The notes below the pieces were generated by a model. The model did not search any database, was not told where the DNA came from, and saw only the letters and a program-made list of their open reading frames with translations. A stretch of DNA of 64,000 nt from Thermoproteota archaeon (GTDB lineage Archaea > Thermoproteota > Thermoprotei_A > EX4484-217-1), in NCBI GenBank assembly GCA_029258915.1, contig JAPDJU010000005.1:201797-265796 (forward strand), in the 5' to 3' direction. The position numbers and the translations under genes are program-made. Each line of letters starts with the position of its first letter. The first letter of the stretch is position 1. Below, in pieces: positions 2,728 to 42,138 of this stretch.

Positions 2728-2813
2728 TTAAAATACCACCTAAAAGTAATACCGTAGTACATTATATAAAAGTATTTTCAGTATCATTCTTTTAGAGTAC
2801 TTTTTAAAGGTAA

Positions 2814-3095
2814 TTGATAGTTTCTTTTAAAACCCTTACTTTATTAGTATGGGTGAGACAGGTGGACGTAGATAGTTTGATTAGTGATTTAACTACAAGG
2901 ATTGTTATGGCAGCTTGGGCTCTCTTTATGCTCTCATGGGCTTTAGGATGGTTGTTGAAGGGGTCTCCTATACCTATTTATAGGGTTAAAAGATTTGGAC
3001 AGGATATGGTGGAAGATGCTATACTTGGAGCGTTTTGGCTAGCTGTTGGAACAAGTATATTTGCTTTAATTAAGTATTTAGCATCATCTGTTTAA
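2814..3095 (+). CDS. cedA1: small two-TM membrane protein, CedA1-like
   Basis: 93 aa with a TTG start and two hydrophobic helices. It is the first gene of the membrane/ATPase cluster. Confidence 0.5.
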   Translation: MIVSFKTLTLLVWVRQVDVDSLISDLTTRIVMAAWALFMLSWALGWLLKGSPIPIYRVKRFGQDMVEDAILGAFWLAVGTSIFALIKYLASSV

Positions 3096-3116
3096 AATAC
3101 GGAGAAGTGGAAAACT

Positions 3117-4568
3117 ATGGATCAATATCTTATTTTAGCTTACTCATTAGCTATACTCACCTATTACCTAGGTGTCCTCATATATGCTATACCTATACCA
3201 TGGTGGGGTATTAAAAAATGGGCTCCAACCTTAATATATGATGCCCTGGCAGCTTCTCTCTTAGTTCTTATGTTTTCAACAATAGTTGAACTAGTTAATT
3301 ATTTAGGTTCTTTATTAAATGTTGACTGGCAAGTATATTTTGAATGGCTTACCAGTAGAATAGCTATTATGGGCTCGTTTATCTCATTTCTTATAACGCT
3401 TTCCCTAATGTTATCGAGCGCTGGTGTAAAAGCTGTTTCAACGGCTGTTCTTGGACCTATAATAAGCTTAGCTACGTATACCTTAATAGTATTGGAAATA
3501 TTTTTCATATTGGGTCTTGTTTTTAATCAGTTCTTTGCCAAGATAATGATAATAGGTATTCTACTTTACTCAATACCCTTCAGAATAGCTAGAGGAGCTG
3601 GGGCAGCTCTTGTAGCTATGTCCATAGTTTTTACACTAGCTTTACCTCTACTACCAGTTTTTACACATGCTTTTACCGTTCAAGGAGCTGAAGAAAGAAT
3701 ACTTGAAATAACGGAGAAAATGGATAAGGTAAATGTTGAAGAATGGGGAATAGTGTTTGTTAAAGGACATGTAACAGATAGGAAGGGTAAGCCTGTAAAC
3801 AACATATTAACAAAATGGTTTGCATTGCTTAAACAAAGCGAAGTATATGTAGCATCATATATGACGTTAGAAGATGGATGGTTTGATGCTGGAAGACCTT
3901 ACGGAGGGTTACCATATAATGTTATGTTAAAGTTGAAAGCAGAGTATTGTGGTGTAGAATTAACCCCAGAACCTAGAATAATAGACCCACATGCAGATTT
4001 TACCTATAATCCTCTTAAAGATCCCAATGCAGACTACTTTGTCGAAATAAAAATAAAGGACATGATAATTATCAGTAAATACTTTTTCGTAAAGTCAAAT
4101 AGCAACGAAGTACTTGACGCATTGAAAATTATTAAAGGAGACGATTTAGCAAACTTAAAATTTACAATAAGTAAACCTGCAACGGTAACATTGGTTATTC
4201 ACGAAGATTATAATGTTGATAAAGTCATAGTTAACAGTACTAAAGCTATAAGATACAGCAAAGTAAAAAACTGGGGAGGCGTTAGCTTCCAAATATACGA
4301 AGTATCCTTAAATGAAGGTACATGGGTGTTAAGCGTAAGAGTTAACTTTCAACGTGACGTTAAGGACCCTGAGATCACTGGTAAGGGCTATCTTGAAACT
4401 ATATCTAAAAATATAGGTGATTTCGAAGAGCTTGGCAAGGTCATTGCTAACGCTGTATTTGAATGGATAGTATTGCCTGGAACATATTTGTCAATACTTA
4501 TTATGTCTACGTATTCTCTAGCATATGTCATAGGCGGTAGGAAAATAAGGTTACCTATAAAAACGTGA
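3117..4568 (+). CDS. cedA: polytopic membrane protein with large extracytoplasmic domain, CedA-like (VirB6-like role)
   Basis: 483 aa with about 6 N-terminal TM helices, a soluble domain of roughly 250 aa and a C-terminal TM helix. It sits between two small 2-TM genes and upstream of a VirB4-like ATPase. Confidence 0.55.
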   Translation: MDQYLILAYSLAILTYYLGVLIYAIPIPWWGIKKWAPTLIYDALAASLLVLMFSTIVELVNYLGSLLNVDWQVYFEWLTSRIAIMGSFISFLITLSLMLSSAGVKAVSTAVLGPIISLATYTLIVLEIFFILGLVFNQFFAKIMIIGILLYSIPFRIARGAGAALVAMSIVFTLALPLLPVFTHAFTVQGAEERILEITEKMDKVNVEEWGIVFVKGHVTDRKGKPVNNILTKWFALLKQSEVYVASYMTLEDGWFDAGRPYGGLPYNVMLKLKAEYCGVELTPEPRIIDPHADFTYNPLKDPNADYFVEIKIKDMIIISKYFFVKSNSNEVLDALKIIKGDDLANLKFTISKPATVTLVIHEDYNVDKVIVNSTKAIRYSKVKNWGGVSFQIYEVSLNEGTWVLSVRVNFQRDVKDPEITGKGYLETISKNIGDFEELGKVIANAVFEWIVLPGTYLSILIMSTYSLAYVIGGRKIRLPIKT

Positions 4569-4577
4569 GGTGGGTTT

Positions 4578-4772
4578 ATGGATCCCTTTAAAACCATGAT
4601 AATAATGTATGTTTTCACAGTAGTTTTCGTTTTTTACAATGTGTTTAGATACCTAGATAAGATAACCGTTTTGAACATAGCATTATTTGTAGTTTTGATA
4701 GTGTTTCCGTTTCTAGCTATCTTAACTTATTATAGGAATATTGTAAAAGGTGGTGATATACGTGGAAGGTAA
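4578..4772 (+). CDS. cedA2: small two-TM membrane protein, CedA2-like
   Basis: 64 aa with two hydrophobic helices. It overlaps the ATPase gene start by 23 nt. Confidence 0.5.
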   Translation: MDPFKTMIIMYVFTVVFVFYNVFRYLDKITVLNIALFVVLIVFPFLAILTYYRNIVKGGDIRGR

Positions 4773-6636
4773 TAAAGTAATACCTTATATCCTTATAGTT
4801 TCTGGATTCATGATTTTCATTTTTACTATGAATTCTGCAGCTTTAATGAATAATTTATACATGGTACCAGTATTAATATTAGCTCTAGTGTGTTTGGTTA
4901 TTATAATGTCTAATAAGGATGCTTTAAAGAAGTTTATTAGAAGATCCAAGGAATATTATTTAAAAAACATAGGAGAATTCCATGTTGAAGACAATTTTGT
5001 GGTTGTTGCAGGTAAAAATATGTATAAAGGTGCTATCGTATATGTCGTTGATGAAATACCGTATACTTTCGCTGATGTCTCACATAGCTTCCTATTACAA
5101 CAGTTAAGGGCATTCACCAATTTCATAGTAGCATCAGAAGATAATATCTCAGTACTTCTTATAAAGAAGAGCAGTGATGCAAGGAAATATATTAAAAACC
5201 TAGAACGCACTATAACAAACTATAGAGTATTACTTTCAGCAGATCCAGCTAATCCATATGTTCAGAGAAAACTACAGAAACTTGAAGCAATATTTAACAG
5301 AGTAAGCAAAGGAGAAACACCTATTAACGTAAAGATATACTTAATAGCCTTTGCTTACGAAGCCAATATGAGAAAACTTTATGAAAAATTAAAGAGAAAA
5401 GGCGAAGCACTAGTATCATCTTTCAAAGCAAGCATGGGGTTAGAGATTAAAAAAGCAACAGAGGATGAAGTGTTAGAGGCCATAACCCATGGGCTATTAG
5501 GTAAAAGCAAGCCTTTAACAGTCCTAGAGTCCGATATAAGCTTCTTAACACCTATAGGTTACGTTAAAAGACCTAAAGTTTCTGGCGAAGGTATATTCTT
5601 AGGTGAAGACATAGACTATGGGACGCTAGTCTTCTATGACTTTGAAAAATATTTAACTAGGCACATGGTTATAGTAGGTCCCACAGGAAGAGGTAAAACA
5701 ACACTCCTTTACACTATTGCAAAAAGAGTTATGGAACAATATGATATACCGATATGGATTTTGGATTTAAGAGGAGAGTTTGAAGTATTAAATAAAGCCA
5801 TGGGAATAACCATAGTTGACCCTGAAAAATCACCTGTCAATCTATTGTTACCATGGTTTACCAGCCCTAAACTACGTGCTAAGCAGGTAGTAGATTTAAT
5901 TAAAGCATTAGCGGAACTAGAGCCCACTGAAGAATATATTCTTTTCATGGCAATTTTAAAGTCTTATGAACGAGCTCAACATCCTGATTTAGAAACTTTG
6001 ATAAATGTAATTAAGGAGGAATATTTAAACAGAGAATTGCAGCTGAAGTCATATACCTTGCTTACTAAGATCGAACAGTTAAACAGTAAGGTTTTCCTGC
6101 AAAGTAACTTTAATGATATGATGATTATAGTGAAGAAACCAATAATATTTGCTCTTTATAAATTACCTGAAGAATATAGAAAGATATATGCATTAGCCAT
6201 TTTACAAATATTAACGAATTATATGCTTACTCTAACGCCGACAAATAAGTTAAGGCATTTAGTAATAATAGATGAAGCATGGAGGCTAACAGATACTAAA
6301 GCTGGATCCAGGATCATTAGAAGCTTGGTTAAAGAAGGAAGAGGATATGGTTTAGCTGTTGCTTTAGCTTCTCAGGACATATCGGATTTCCCAAAAGACA
6401 TACTTGACAATGCCGGGACAGTAATAGTTTTCGGCTCTAATAGCAAAGACTATGTAGAAACAGTAGCTAAATACATGAAGCTTAATGATGATGAAAAAGA
6501 GAGAATGACATGGCTAAAAATAGGTGAAGCTTTAATAAGGATAACTGGTGATCCGAGACCTGTTTGGGTTAAGATAGTTCCAGAAAACATGGAGTACCAA
6601 GAAAAACCTCATGTAAGCAAAATCAGTAAAACATAA
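4750..6636 (+). CDS. cedB: membrane-anchored VirB4/HerA-FtsK superfamily ATPase, CedB-like
   Basis: 628 aa with N-terminal TM helices. Walker A is VGPTGRGKTT and Walker B is VIIDEAWRL. DEAW is the VirB4/TrbE-type signature. GTG start overlapping the upstream gene. Confidence 0.65.
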   Translation: MVIYVEGNKVIPYILIVSGFMIFIFTMNSAALMNNLYMVPVLILALVCLVIIMSNKDALKKFIRRSKEYYLKNIGEFHVEDNFVVVAGKNMYKGAIVYVVDEIPYTFADVSHSFLLQQLRAFTNFIVASEDNISVLLIKKSSDARKYIKNLERTITNYRVLLSADPANPYVQRKLQKLEAIFNRVSKGETPINVKIYLIAFAYEANMRKLYEKLKRKGEALVSSFKASMGLEIKKATEDEVLEAITHGLLGKSKPLTVLESDISFLTPIGYVKRPKVSGEGIFLGEDIDYGTLVFYDFEKYLTRHMVIVGPTGRGKTTLLYTIAKRVMEQYDIPIWILDLRGEFEVLNKAMGITIVDPEKSPVNLLLPWFTSPKLRAKQVVDLIKALAELEPTEEYILFMAILKSYERAQHPDLETLINVIKEEYLNRELQLKSYTLLTKIEQLNSKVFLQSNFNDMMIIVKKPIIFALYKLPEEYRKIYALAILQILTNYMLTLTPTNKLRHLVIIDEAWRLTDTKAGSRIIRSLVKEGRGYGLAVALASQDISDFPKDILDNAGTVIVFGSNSKDYVETVAKYMKLNDDEKERMTWLKIGEALIRITGDPRPVWVKIVPENMEYQEKPHVSKISKT

Positions 6637-6654
6637 TAAAAACACAGTATTATT

Positions 6655-6735
6655 TTAAGAAATGATCCGTGCAATCTAACCCCGCAAGGGTAGAGATGAG
6701 CACGGAGGTTGCCCCTAGGCAACACCCATTACCTT
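6655..6735 (+). ncRNA. GC-rich structured element immediately 3' of cedB (candidate small RNA or terminator structure)
   Basis: GC-rich island in an AT-rich background. It contains nested hairpins (CCGUGC...GCACGG enclosing CCC-GCAA-GGG, and GUUGCC-CCUA-GGCAAC). It shares the ordered motifs AAUGAUCC, AGAUGAG and GUUGCCC with 26684-26740. Confidence 0.3.
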
Positions 6736-6761: not shown

Positions 6762-7304
6762 GTGGTGATCTTTTTGCATGAAAGAAGCAATATTATCCCT
6801 GTTCATGCAGAATCTTACTTCATAGTAGAGCGTAATGGTAAATTCAACCAAATACTAAAATATCAATACTACGACCCTGAAGAGTACTATTACACGCTCA
6901 TTCATAGACCTAGAGAATATTATAAAGAAATAAAGAGATTATACTCTGTTATGAATGAAGTGCTTAAGGAAGAAAGAGTATTAATCAATGAAAAACAAGT
7001 AAAGCTAAACGTAAAACTAGTAAACATAGACTTTGCTGGATACGTAGATCAGCCTTACATCCTATATTATATAAAGTTTAAAGGGCCTTTAAGAAAAGGT
7101 GTTAATATATTTGAAGACTTCTATGAGGAAACAGTAGCGGAGTACGATTATGAAGTATATTGGTTCTTTCCCGAACGTACAAAAATATTAGAAGTATATG
7201 TTGACGGCGATTTTGACTTAGTAAATAGTAATAAGTTGTTTATTTGGGCTCGAAAAGGCGATAAAATATCGGGATATGAGAAAATAATCTTTATGCTTTC
7301 TTAA
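6762..7304 (+). CDS. hypothetical protein (Tyr/Glu-rich)
   Basis: 180-aa ORF with no recognisable motif. Confidence 0.4.
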   Translation: MVIFLHERSNIIPVHAESYFIVERNGKFNQILKYQYYDPEEYYYTLIHRPREYYKEIKRLYSVMNEVLKEERVLINEKQVKLNVKLVNIDFAGYVDQPYILYYIKFKGPLRKGVNIFEDFYEETVAEYDYEVYWFFPERTKILEVYVDGDFDLVNSNKLFIWARKGDKISGYEKIIFMLS

Positions 7305-8464: not shown

Positions 8465-9007
8465 TTACTCTATTTTTATCTTAAATCCTTCCTCTGTTTC
8501 TTTTTCAGCTTTTTCCACCTTTACTTCTAAAACACCGTTTCTATAGCTTGCTTTTGCTGTTTCAGGTTTTACATCTGTTGGAAGTTCTACTTCCTTGTAG
8601 TATTTCCTATCACCGCTGGCAGCCGATATAATCAATGTTCTTCCTTTGATTTTTACATCGATATCTTCTTTACTTACTCCAGGTACTTCAGCAACTATGG
8701 TTATTGTATCTTTATCTTCTATGATGTCTACTAAAGGTTCTCTTTCTTCAGAAATCTTGGGCCTACCAGCAATACGTCTAACATTACCAAATTCCTTAAT
8801 TATAGGTTTACCATCAGGTCCTATGGTTATGCTAAAACCATAAACATATGGGCCGAAAACTCTTCTTTCGCCAAACTCTTCAGCTAGCTCTTCAAATCTT
8901 TCCATTCTCTTCATCCAGTCTCTAAATTCTCTATCGATGTCTTCAAATATGTCTTCAAAAAACTCGTCAAATACATCCCAGAAGCTTTTCCTTCTTCTCC
9001 TAGGCAT
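8465..9007 (-). CDS. small heat shock protein (Hsp20/alpha-crystallin family)
   Basis: 180 aa. The alpha-crystallin core is DIIEDKDTITIVAEVPGVSKEDIDVKI...LPTDVKPETAKASYRNGVLEV. Confidence 0.8.
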   Translation of the reverse strand: MPRRRRKSFWDVFDEFFEDIFEDIDREFRDWMKRMERFEELAEEFGERRVFGPYVYGFSITIGPDGKPIIKEFGNVRRIAGRPKISEEREPLVDIIEDKDTITIVAEVPGVSKEDIDVKIKGRTLIISAASGDRKYYKEVELPTDVKPETAKASYRNGVLEVKVEKAEKETEEGFKIKIE

Positions 9008-9090: not shown

Positions 9091-9489
9091 CTATTCTATC
9101 TTTACTTTTAGTCCATGAAATAAATGCTTAAACTTCATGTATGTATTCATGTCTATGATAACATCATTACCATCTTTTAGGTAAGCCAATCCCTCTAAAG
9201 GATATGGTGGCGGTTTAGGTATGTTTTTTGGTATTGATTTACCAAGGTATTTCCATTTTATTTTTCTCTTTTCTTTACCGCGCTCTAGCCTCCACCAATA
9301 TCGGCTATGGTAAACATATTTCTTACCCTTAACTACAACTATGTGTGAAGGTTTCAAGTATAAACCTAAGTTTTTAATGAGAACATTGTATTCTTTAAAC
9401 TCGCTTTTAAACTCTTTCCGTATATCTAAGATTCTCTTATATCCATCGATTACTCTAACCCTAACCACGATTAGAACACCAAGTAACAT
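9091..9489 (-). CDS. hypothetical basic protein
   Basis: 132-aa ORF. Its start codon overlaps a C/D-box-like element. Confidence 0.35.
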   Translation of the reverse strand: MLLGVLIVVRVRVIDGYKRILDIRKEFKSEFKEYNVLIKNLGLYLKPSHIVVVKGKKYVYHSRYWWRLERGKEKRKIKWKYLGKSIPKNIPKPPPYPLEGLAYLKDGNDVIIDMNTYMKFKHLFHGLKVKIE

Positions 9490-40125: not shown

Positions 40126-40602
40126 GTGATGCTTATGAGTAGCAAACGTAGATTAGGTTTTTCAAGAGAACGAGAACTTGTTAGACTTTTTTGGAAGAAA
40201 GGATTTGCATGTATTAGAGGTCCTGCAAGCGGTGCAAAAACCAGGAGGATAATATACCCGGATCTCATAGCTTTGAAAAATGGGGTAATTTTTATTATCG
40301 AAGTAAAGACTAGAGAATCTAAAGAACCAATATATATCGACCGTGAAAAGATAATACGGCTCAAAGAGTTTGCTAGAAGAGCTAAAGGCTTACCTCTTAT
40401 TGCAATTAAGTTTATAGGTCAAACTAGATGGCGTTTTCTACATGTAAATGACCTCATAGAAACAGCGAAGGGAAACTTTAAAGTCGACCTTGAAGTTTTA
40501 GCTAAGAAGGGGTTAACTATTGAAGCTTTAGAAGCTCTAGCTTCAAAAACTACTAAGCTTAATAGATTTCTATTCCACTCTAACTCTAATAGTTATTCCT
40601 AG
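40126..40602 (+). CDS. hjc: Holliday junction resolvase Hjc/Hje
   Basis: RERELVRLFWKKGFACIRGPASG...PDLIALKNGVIFIIEVKT matches the Hjc catalytic core. The likely start is 40135. Confidence 0.75.
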   Translation: MMLMSSKRRLGFSRERELVRLFWKKGFACIRGPASGAKTRRIIYPDLIALKNGVIFIIEVKTRESKEPIYIDREKIIRLKEFARRAKGLPLIAIKFIGQTRWRFLHVNDLIETAKGNFKVDLEVLAKKGLTIEALEALASKTTKLNRFLFHSNSNSYS

Positions 40603-42138
40603 TTTTTCTTCTAATCGTCTAAGCCTTCTAGCTTTCTTCACAAGTATTCTTGCTTGGTTCCTAGGAACAATAACGGTTACTGTTGACCCTTGAATTTCTA
40701 TTGATGCGTTTGGAATTAGCCTTTCTATTTCTCTAACTATTCTTCTTTCAAAACCTCTAGCTAAAACTCTTCTAACCGGAATAACAACGGTAGCTTCGCC
40801 AAATTTATACATTTCATATTCTAACTCTCCTGTTAAGTAGTCCCTAACTTCAACAACAGGTCTAGCAAGATCTGCTTCCCTAAGCCCAGTAGGCAATTTA
40901 ACGGAAATTGAGACTTCATAAACCTTCTTTACTTCGCCATTTTCTATGAAAATCACAGTATCTAAAATGCTAGGTATCATTCCAAGTTCTACTCTACCTA
41001 TAAACCTTTGAATGGCATCTATAGGTGATGTTGCGTGAACTACTCCTACCATGCCTATTCCTGCAAGTCTCAAGTCGGTATATAGTTTGAAGTCTTCGTC
41101 ATTTCTCATTTCATCAAAGAAAGTGTAATCAGGTCTGCTTAAAAGAAGAATGTCATGGAGCTCGCCGCTGGAAGCATGTGTTTTAGAATATTGTGTAACT
41201 AGATCAGGTAAATGCATGTCTCTTGGAGATTCTATAGTTTTAACTATTTTACCTTTTCTTGAATAATATTCTGCAAGTGCTTGTGCAAATGTCGTTTTAC
41301 CCATTCCGGGGGCTCCAGCTATAAGTATTCCTTCAGCTCTTTCTTCAAGTCTTCTAAGAAGCTTTTTAGGTAAATTGTAATCTTCAAGTCTTAGTTTAAC
41401 TAAAGGCCGTACAGCGGTAATTTCCCATCCATCTGAAAGCGGGGGCCTTGCTATAATTATTCTATAGAGGCCAAGTTGAACTATTGTGGAACCTGCTCTA
41501 TCAACTTCTATAAATCCGTTTCCTCTAAGTTTAGCGGCTTCGATTATTTCTTTTGCTATCTCCTCTATCTCCTCTCTTGTTAAAGGCTCCTTTTTTAAAA
41601 CAGTAATTCTCCAAGACCCTGGCTTACCTTTCTTGGCAAGTGGAGGTACGCCTTCCTTTAGATGTATGCTCATAGTTTCTGTATCAAAGAAGGCTTCTAG
41701 CTTTACTTTATGTTCTTTCTTGGGTTTAACATATAATACCTTGATACCTAATGCCTTAGCTACCTCTGCCTGAACTCTGTCTCCGGTAATTAGTATTGCA
41801 TCAAGTTCCCATGCTAGCTCCCTAATCATAGCGTCTATTGCTCCTGTCCAAGCCATTCTAATATCTACTGGTTTAGGTCTTTCACCAGCAATTTCCAGCT
41901 TAATCTTACCCTTATGAGCTAATTCTCTAAGTCTCTTGACTTCCTCTAACCCTGCAAAACCAACAGCCTTACCCTGATTAGCTTGATTCTCAAGCTCCGA
42001 AATTACTGCTCTATGGATTATTATTTTCCCTTTAATAGCATCCTCTTCAACAAGCTTAGACACCACACCTTCAACAATAACGCTGGTGTCAGGTACATAA
42101 ATCTCCTCTTCAACCACCGGATATGTTATCTCATTCAT
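40570..42138 (-). CDS. PIN-domain / PilT-like ATPase / KH-domain protein (COG1855-type)
   Basis: 522 aa with an N-terminal PIN-like domain, Walker A GAPGMGKTT and a C-terminal KH-like segment. Confidence 0.7.
   Translation of the reverse strand: MNEITYPVVEEEIYVPDTSVIVEGVVSKLVEEDAIKGKIIIHRAVISELENQANQGKAVGFAGLEEVKRLRELAHKGKIKLEIAGERPKPVDIRMAWTGAIDAMIRELAWELDAILITGDRVQAEVAKALGIKVLYVKPKKEHKVKLEAFFDTETMSIHLKEGVPPLAKKGKPGSWRITVLKKEPLTREEIEEIAKEIIEAAKLRGNGFIEVDRAGSTIVQLGLYRIIIARPPLSDGWEITAVRPLVKLRLEDYNLPKKLLRRLEERAEGILIAGAPGMGKTTFAQALAEYYSRKGKIVKTIESPRDMHLPDLVTQYSKTHASSGELHDILLLSRPDYTFFDEMRNDEDFKLYTDLRLAGIGMVGVVHATSPIDAIQRFIGRVELGMIPSILDTVIFIENGEVKKVYEVSISVKLPTGLREADLARPVVEVRDYLTGELEYEMYKFGEATVVIPVRRVLARGFERRIVREIERLIPNASIEIQGSTVTVIVPRNQARILVKKARRLRRLEEKLGITIRVRVE

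Follow-up and report, generated by a model that had tools for sequence, protein, structure and literature searches.

A stretch of 64,000 nucleotides of the contig JAPDJU010000005.1 (assembly GCA_029258915.1, Thermoproteota archaeon), hereafter the window, contains near its 5' end a cluster of four open reading frames (ORFs), all on the + strand, at 2814-3095 (93 aa), 3117-4568 (483 aa), 4578-4772 (64 aa) and 4750-6636 (628 aa), which the initial annotation, made from the letters of the sequence, had assigned to the DNA import system Ced in the order cedA1-cedA-cedA2-cedB. The four co-oriented genes were confirmed at these positions, with gaps of 21 nt and then 9 nt, followed by an overlap of the small gene with cedB; motifs resembling Shine-Dalgarno (SD) sequences, GGTG or GAGGTG, precede the gene starts, and the GC content of the cluster, 0.33, is that of its flanks. 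The assignment to Ced was borne out as well: CedA1, CedA and CedB were recognised by profile, and the order cedA1-cedA-(small ORF)-cedB was seen in 38 genome loci of Desulfurococcales, Acidilobaceae and Pyrodictiaceae, among them Thermogladius sp. KZ2Tp1, a Staphylothermus metagenome-assembled genome (MAG), an Aeropyrum MAG (locus L034) and Ignicoccus pacificus, with the small ORF present in some of them only. The genes and their parts, with the starts preferred here, are the following:

2862..3095, + strand: cedA1, VirB2-like Ced pilin of 77 aa, predicted two-helix hairpin (the ORF first annotated begins at TTG 2814)
3117..4568, + strand: cedA, VirB6-like polytopic channel/platform protein of the long (Desulfurococcales-type) form, 483 aa
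3705..4436, + strand: insertion within cedA, encoding the predicted extracytoplasmic tandem beta-sandwich domain
4578..4772, + strand: gene of a small protein of 64 aa with two transmembrane (TM) segments, in the CedA2 position
4762..6636, + strand: cedB, membrane-anchored ATPase of the VirB4/HerA superfamily, 624 aa (628 aa from GTG 4750)

The annotated sizes of 483 and 64 aa were kept, and those of the two outer genes were revised by start-codon comparison, from 93 to 77 aa and from 628 to 624 aa. For cedA1, the most likely start is GTG 2862, which is invariant in eight aligned relatives and preceded by a conserved GGGTGA/GGGGGA motif; in the same upstream alignment, the segment 2814-2861 shows frame-breaking 2-nt indels, and TTG 2877 is unconserved. 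The resulting 77-aa protein is in register with the unprocessed 84-aa pilin of Aeropyrum pernix (8DFU), its residue 2 corresponding to residue 3 of the latter. For cedB, the position equivalent to residue 5 of the 628-aa call is ATG in the loci L003 and L019 and a GTG start in L004, and the gene call is 624 aa in L039, a 95%-identical 37-kb JGI contig that was reached via the protein P0001 (CedA 94% identical) and extends about 7 kb further upstream than the window. GTG 4762 is therefore the most likely start of cedB, with an overlap of 11 nt with the small gene.

The first protein is, on its sequence, a CedA1 equivalog and a VirB2-like pilin. It scored 119.4 bits with the NCBIfam model NF041797 (cut-off 100) and was homologous over the whole length to the PDB entry 8DFU (E 4.7e-23), the cryo-electron microscopy (cryo-EM) structure of the CedA1 pilus of A. 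pernix (Beltran et al. 2023, PMC9905601). Hydropathy gave, as had been annotated, two TM segments both in this protein and in the 64-aa protein, and a membrane anchor in the ATPase. The CedA1 model also matches the N-terminus of the 483-aa protein, in agreement with the already published homology between CedA1 and the N-terminus of CedA (PMC9905601). The best NCBIfam family of the 483-aa protein is CedA (154.7 bits), followed by CedE (106), and hence both membrane proteins proved homologous to the components they had been named after. Its N-terminal 195 residues align to positions 6-200 of the CedA model and its last 42 residues to positions 215-256 of 259. About six hydrophobic helices are seen in the hydropathy profile at residues 4-188.

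The fourth protein carries the Walker A motif GPTGRGKTT and the Walker B motif VIIDEAWRL that had been read in it initially, and matches the NCBIfam model CedB with 264.3 bits over positions 13-586 of 590, followed by CedD (87.9), VirB4 (49.5) and HerA (43). Its N-terminal part of about 293 residues alone gave 112.8 bits with CedB, 11.4 with CedD and essentially nothing else; this domain is the discriminating region of CedB (Wu et al., PMC11868833). Two N-terminal TM helices, a CedB-type N-terminal domain, the Pfam domains AAA_10 and DUF87, and weak matches to the P-loop parts of TraC, TrbE, VirB4 and TraG complete the description, and by its profile matches the ATPase can be assigned to CedB, as distinct from CedD, VirB4 and HerA. 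A grouping with HerA/NurA or with plasmid TrbE had been set against CedB in the initial annotation, and CedB came out best by far (264.3 against at most 50 bits for VirB4 and HerA). It is barely conceivable that the protein is a HerA/NurA-type repair helicase or an anti-phage HerA standing beside unrelated membrane proteins, a reading for which DUF87, the central domain of HerA, and the weak matches to HerA_antiphage and HerA may be adduced: the HerA models yield no more than 43 bits (CedB 264), CedB is the only family matched by the N-terminal 290 residues, no NurA, Mre11 or Rad50 gene is adjacent, and the ATPase has two TM helices and is translationally coupled to the genes of the CedA1 and CedA homologues. 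The profile scores thus refute the HerA reading.

The 64-aa gene, whose strong SD sequence GAGGTGG overlaps the stop codon of cedA, corresponds to CedA2 by size, position and topology only. What had been claimed for it as cedA2 therefore stands in its size, its two TM segments and its place in the cluster, and not in sequence: NCBIfam gave no match, Pfam DUF6684 stayed below its cut-off, and the alignment by hhalign to CedA1, to the small ORFs of the Staphylothermus and Thermogladius type and to the TM hairpin of CedB remained at a probability of at most 3%. Sequence homologues were found only in L001, L002, L004, L005 and L039, and most of the other loci have a two-TM ORF of 50-65 aa in the slot between cedA and cedB. 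CedA2 is reported as not conserved outside Sulfolobales (PMC9905601, PMC11868833). Comparison of the loci with such an ORF (L015, L017, L022-L024, L026, L028-L030, L033, L036 and L037) with others set against them (L020, L027, L031, L032, L034 and L038) distinguishes three forms of CedB anchoring. The clade of the window has the small ORF together with a CedB of two TM helices; the Staphylothermus- and Thermogladius-type loci have the small ORF together with a CedB without a TM helix; in Aeropyrum, Acidilobaceae and Ignicoccus, the small ORF is lacking and CedB is shorter (465-489 aa), with one TM helix, which agrees with the reported absence of CedA2 from A. pernix (PMC11868833). The variability suggests a two-TM anchor that may be split off or fused, reminiscent of VirB3-VirB4. 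A weak similarity by hhalign between the small ORF of the genomes with TM-less CedB and the fused TM hairpin of CedB (probability 33%, E 4.5e-4) hints in the same direction, but is a value that TM composition alone could explain.

The surroundings of the cluster are those of an ordinary chromosomal locus. Upstream lie genes for a hexapeptide acetyltransferase, a Zn-ribbon protein and a divergently oriented regulator of the ribbon-helix-helix (RHH) type similar to aCcr1/CdrS; downstream follow a 180-aa ORF, PriL, Hsp20, a UBP nucleoid protein, two eIF2B-like genes, Taw21, TYW3, acyl-CoA carboxylase subunits, LeuRS and glutamate dehydrogenase, as well as a homologue of PfkB-family kinases, which is annotated only in L039. 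The acetyltransferase, Zn-ribbon and RHH genes adjoin the cluster in L001-L005, L019 and L039 (CedA identity 42-94%), and the 180-aa ORF and PriL stand on its other side in the same loci except L005, where the contig ends just past cedB. Further upstream, L039 carries the genes of PCNA, Rpo13, an Lhr helicase and a 606-aa DUF87 ATPase. Genes for an integrase, relaxase, coupling protein, replication or partition were found neither among the ORFs scanned in the window nor in L039; the window contains no tRNA gene and no Rfam gene and thus no integration target. Among 72,556 plasmids, tblastn gave no match to CedA, and the matches to CedB were limited to the P-loop domain, with about 25% identity (27% at most) and a coverage of up to 58%. 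By the sequence context, the cluster is a chromosomal, vertically inherited locus and not part of a mobile element, and the initial statement to this effect has gained the housekeeping flanks and the uniform GC content as further arguments. An integrated conjugative plasmid or integrative conjugative element, with a type IV secretion system (T4SS) exporting the element's own DNA, would agree with the descent of the proteins from conjugation machinery (VirB2, VirB6, VirB4) and with the weak TraC, TrbE, VirB4 and TraG matches of the ATPase. It is nevertheless highly improbable and was rejected on context, GC and plasmid searches, as the mobility and maintenance genes are lacking from the scanned ORFs of the window and from the additional 7 kb of L039, tRNA genes are absent from the window, the same housekeeping neighbours persist down to 42% CedA identity, and the plasmids yielded nothing for CedA and only P-loops for CedB.

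The cluster very probably represents the chromosomal Ced operon, a domesticated minimal machine of the type-IV-secretion kind, of an uncultured archaeon of the Desulfurococcales lineage that has a low GC content and comes from marine hydrothermal settings. Several points weigh against this. By the curated NCBI cut-offs, only CedA1 is formally a family member, the equivalog cut-offs being 330 bits for CedA (154.7 observed) and 700 bits for CedB (264.3 observed); these low scores appear to reflect the divergence from the Sulfolobales sequences that are apparently behind the models and, for CedA, also the large insertion. The 64-aa protein shows no demonstrable homology to CedA2, the partner ATPase CedD is not in the 64-kb window, and the induction by ultraviolet (UV) light or DNA damage, which may be expected by analogy with Sulfolobales, is not readable from sequence. 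No Ced of the Desulfurococcales has been shown genetically to move DNA, and the order is genetically intractable (PMC9905601).

A co-occurrence of CedB and CedD has been reported, and the 606-aa ATPase of L039 (1524-3344, - strand) may be such a partner, encoded close to the ced operon in this lineage. Its gene lies about 6.4 kb upstream of cedA1, which places it some 3.5 kb outside the window on the 5' side, and adjoins that of the Lhr-type helicase; the protein combines a polytopic membrane domain, formed by about 200 aa at the N-terminus, with a DUF87/VirB4-like P-loop and the Walker B motif IVIDEAH; its best NCBIfam family is CedD, with a weak score (67.5 bits, cut-off 600). Comparable weak CedB-like matches were found upstream in L001-L005, L011, L012, L014, L017, L019, L021 and L035.

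The interest of the locus comes mainly from the under-described ectodomain of CedA and from an RNA element linked to cedB. The coverage of the CedA model is interrupted, and residues of about 197-440 are therefore inserted after the helical bundle and ahead of the last TM helix, an addition of about 240-245 aa relative to the Sulfolobales CedA of about 260 aa. In an AlphaFold2 model, residues 213-410 are rich in beta structure and a TM helix is predicted near the C-terminus, at 436-472; the layout thus comprises a helical bundle (1-190), two beta-sandwich ectodomains (about 197-440), a C-terminal TM helix (441-475) and a basic tail. The sandwiches are modelled as generic cell-surface modules of the type typical of adhesins, Gram-positive pilins and S-layer anchors, and the best-conserved motif of the insertion, A-G-R-P-x-G-G-L-P, belongs to the first of them; Pfam and NCBIfam gave nothing significant for the ectodomain or for either of its halves. 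From the positive-inside rule and the type of fold, the ectodomain would face outward.

The distribution of this form was assessed by searching 1.84 billion representative proteins exhaustively with a profile, which gave 240 members of the CedA family, the architecture being determined in the best 150. About 110 of these 150 are long (400-550 aa, matched from end to end) and about 26 are short (246-300 aa, matched in two stretches). P0109, a short protein of the Sulfolobales type (261 aa), reaches 367 bits, which is above the CedA cut-off, and the short P0142 is CedE-like. Common motifs stand on either side of a clean gap in the MAFFT alignment of long and short proteins, and in all 38 recovered genome loci, Desulfurococcaceae MAGs among them, CedA has 450-528 aa. 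The ectodomain is thus a trait at the level of orders, the CedA that bears it is the majority architecture, and the Sulfolobales form of about 260 aa is the minority one. The initial annotation had the size of the domain and its position between the TM bundle and the C-terminal anchor right, and erred in regarding it as unusual and possibly lineage-specific, since about 110 of 150 members carry it, including Aeropyrum, Thermogladius, Staphylothermus and Ignicoccus. Gene fragments excepted, the search of the same 1.84 billion proteins gave no protein that matched over the ectodomain only, so the domain is confined to CedA. A word-index search with the TM-only residues 1-200 returned no matches, though the full-length query had given 18 relatives sharing that region; word-index negatives for such purely hydrophobic queries are unreliable, probably due to filter bias, and the exhaustive profile search was used instead. 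The papers on Ced, as far as searchable, contain no discussion of the ectodomain-bearing form, and an extracellular module of 240 residues is missing from the Sulfolobus-based structural models of Ced.

The presence of the ectodomain correlates with the absence of Ups pili and a pilus built of CedA1, which suggests that it may act at the base of the pilus or in making contact. Tentatively, it might belong to a true Ced pilus, as its base or stalk outside the cell or as its adhesin. If so, it would take the role of VirB5 together with that of the periplasmic part of VirB6, or would span the S-layer space; its occurrence in Desulfurococcales and Acidilobales would mark the lineages whose Ced makes a contact pilus of its own, as in the Ups-less A. 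pernix, and its absence from Sulfolobales would fit the situation there, in which contact is made by Ups pili and no Ced pili have ever been observed.

By analogy with the known systems, the following mechanism may be proposed. The four genes would form one transcription unit with coupled translation. CedA1, a VirB2-like pilin, would polymerise with membrane lipid into a hollow pilus, as suggested by the cryo-EM structure from A. pernix, and CedA would be a VirB6-like platform or channel in the membrane, serving both as the site of pilus growth and as the passage for DNA; its two beta-sandwiches, placed between helix bundle and C-terminal anchor, would stand out on the outer side of the membrane. 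The 64-aa protein would be an accessory membrane subunit, and CedB, a VirB4-like hexameric ATPase anchored by two TM helices, would power the pilus assembly, the DNA translocation or both, in concert with a second, CedD-like membrane ATPase as in Sulfolobales, for which the gene upstream in L039 is the candidate. The expected role, taken together with its direction from Sulfolobus genetics, would be the import of chromosomal DNA of neighbouring cells as a template for recombinational repair. The framing by UV-induced, pili-mediated cell aggregation adopted in the initial annotation was abandoned as Sulfolobales-specific, and the Aeropyrum model fits better, as A. pernix lacks Ups and CedA1 itself forms an extracellular pilus there (PMC9905601).

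A Ced-type pilus might also have a main role other than one-way import, either in the attachment to other cells or to surfaces and the building of biofilms by means of the CedA1 pilus and the CedA ectodomain, or in a bidirectional exchange of DNA including export. Import has been demonstrated only in Sulfolobales (PMC11823120, PMC11868833), where CedA1 and CedE also contribute to export (PMC11868833), the CedA1 pili of A. pernix are abundant with UV induction unreported (PMC9905601), and the ectodomain modules are of an adhesin-like type. Such a role is unlikely, however, in view of the full conservation of the VirB2/VirB6/VirB4 triad of DNA-conducting T4SS, the CedD-like ATPase and the Lhr DNA helicase near the cluster in the closest relative, and the interpretation of the A. 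pernix pilus as compatible with DNA passage (PMC9905601); moreover, adhesion and DNA transfer are not mutually exclusive. DNA import remains the preferred function of the operon.

Immediately after cedB, the window contains a GC-rich RNA-like element, found also in relatives:

6656..6732, + strand: GC-rich structured RNA-like element, 77 nt, directly 3' of cedB
Copies of the RNA element: L039 13540-13616; L001 11546-11622; L003 11512-11594
Copies of the RNA element: L011 11262-11342; L012 11465-11545; L006 11535-11615
Copies of the RNA element: L014 11367-11446; L008 11458-11541; L010 7418-7502

The element folds with a minimum free energy of -30 kcal/mol (z -5.2 versus shuffles) into a long three-helix hairpin followed by the invariant tail CCCCUAGGC, with a GC content of 0.5-0.7. 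A covariance model located it 19-43 nt after cedB in 12 further loci (13 with the window) and 860 nt after the gene in one more, and did not detect it in the ced loci of Staphylothermus, Thermogladius, Aeropyrum and Ignicoccus. The pairing amounts to 92.6%, with compensatory changes in 8 of 14 pairs, and none of 500 shuffles reached the observed values; the G-U pairs place the element on the strand of cedB. Rfam contained no family for it at gathering or permissive thresholds in two species, and readings as a K-turn, C/D-box, H/ACA or tRNA fragment, tried by eye, did not fit the sequence. It may be a 3'-untranslated region, a terminator or processing element, or a small RNA, and its link to the Ced function is putative; a novel signal for post-transcriptional control or processing of the operon is a possibility as tentative as the pilus role of the ectodomain.

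On the 5' side, an alignment of eight loci outlines a region that the operon shares with the divergent RHH gene (2515-2727, - strand), with the following elements:

2734..2810, + strand: conserved putative promoter region, common to the operon and the divergent RHH gene
2745-2761: tandem aCcr1-box-like motif AGTAATACC-GTAGTACA, upstream of the TATA-like element
2765-2778: TATA-like TATAAAAGTATTTT, putative promoter element
2800-2808: CTTTTTAAA, putative promoter element

Columns of this region are invariant in the eight loci, whose CedA proteins are only 42-94% identical. The tandem motif fits the published aCcr1-box consensus (PMC9976878), which is that of Sulfolobales, and its 16-mer occurs once in the window. 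Its position, between the start codon of the RHH gene and the AT-rich promoter shared with the operon, is explained most simply by autoregulation; the motif is probably an autoregulatory operator of the RHH gene, and an effect on the divergent ced promoter is possible as well. The RHH gene adjoins ced only in the close clade (L001-L005, L019 and L039), and local synteny with autoregulation is therefore likelier than a functional tie to ced.

Of the other genes of the neighbourhood, the 180-aa ORF (6762-7304, + strand) belongs to no Pfam or NCBIfam family, is 49-98% identical in relatives and overlaps PriL convergently by its 3' end; in L006 it stands beside PriL at about 1 kb from cedB, and so it appears to travel with PriL and not with ced. 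Downstream of PriL are the archaeal Hsp20 gene (8465-9007, - strand) and the gene of the UBP-family nucleoid-associated protein (9091-9489, - strand; 82.9 bits, cut-off 90), both ordinary chromosomal neighbours. A 522-aa protein with an N-terminal PIN domain and a T2SSE/PilT-like P-loop ATPase domain is encoded at 40570-42138 (- strand), not adjacent to ced.

The locus adds one uncultured lineage to the known range of Ced, which is expected from the literature and makes the find an ordinary one. It bears out the presence, in hydrothermal Desulfurococcales, of a complete operon of pilin, channel and ATPase in a stable chromosomal position, and brings as useful by-products the two architectures of CedA, the variable anchoring of CedB and the conserved structured RNA at cedB in one clade.

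The Ced system of the Sulfolobales, reportedly described by van Wolferen in 2016, resembles the present one, in S. acidocaldarius and Saccharolobus islandicus, by the CedA1, CedA and CedB families, a small two-TM gene on each side of cedA, a membrane-anchored CedB and the homology of the CedA N-terminus to CedA1. However, the Sulfolobales CedA of about 260 aa is devoid of the beta-sandwich ectodomain of about 240 aa present here, and cedB, translationally coupled in the window, lies elsewhere in the genome of S. acidocaldarius according to the locus tags of the initial annotation (saci_0567-0569 for cedA1-cedA-cedA2 and saci_0748 for cedB). The Sulfolobales system also includes CedD and CedE (PMC11823120; PMC11868833), and cell contact is provided there by UV-induced Ups pili, with Ced pili never seen (PMC11823120).

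Closer in kind is the Ced of A. pernix, which shares a pilin homologous over the whole length, a chromosomal location and, by the literature, an order without Ups. In the Aeropyrum MAG, the locus L034 has cedA1, a long cedA (455 aa) and cedB in the same order. The loci of the Aeropyrum type, i.e., L034, Acidilobaceae and Ignicoccus, differ by the lack of a small two-TM gene between cedA and cedB and by a CedB of 465-489 aa with one N-terminal TM helix, compared with 624 aa and two helices here; the Aeropyrum CedA is only about 27% identical to that of the window, and the RNA element was not detected in L034.

The Ted system of Thermoproteales (TedC, TedA, TedB) follows the same VirB2/VirB6/VirB4 logic and is likewise chromosomal and domesticated, whereas no recognisable similarity between Ced and Ted components has been reported, and TedC has a cleaved signal peptide (PMC9905601). 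The proteins of the window match the Ced models directly, and the system is therefore Ced and not Ted. The inner-membrane core and pilus of the bacterial conjugative T4SS, with VirB2, VirB6/TrwI and VirB4 (R388; 7O3V and 7O41), represent the related system in bacteria.

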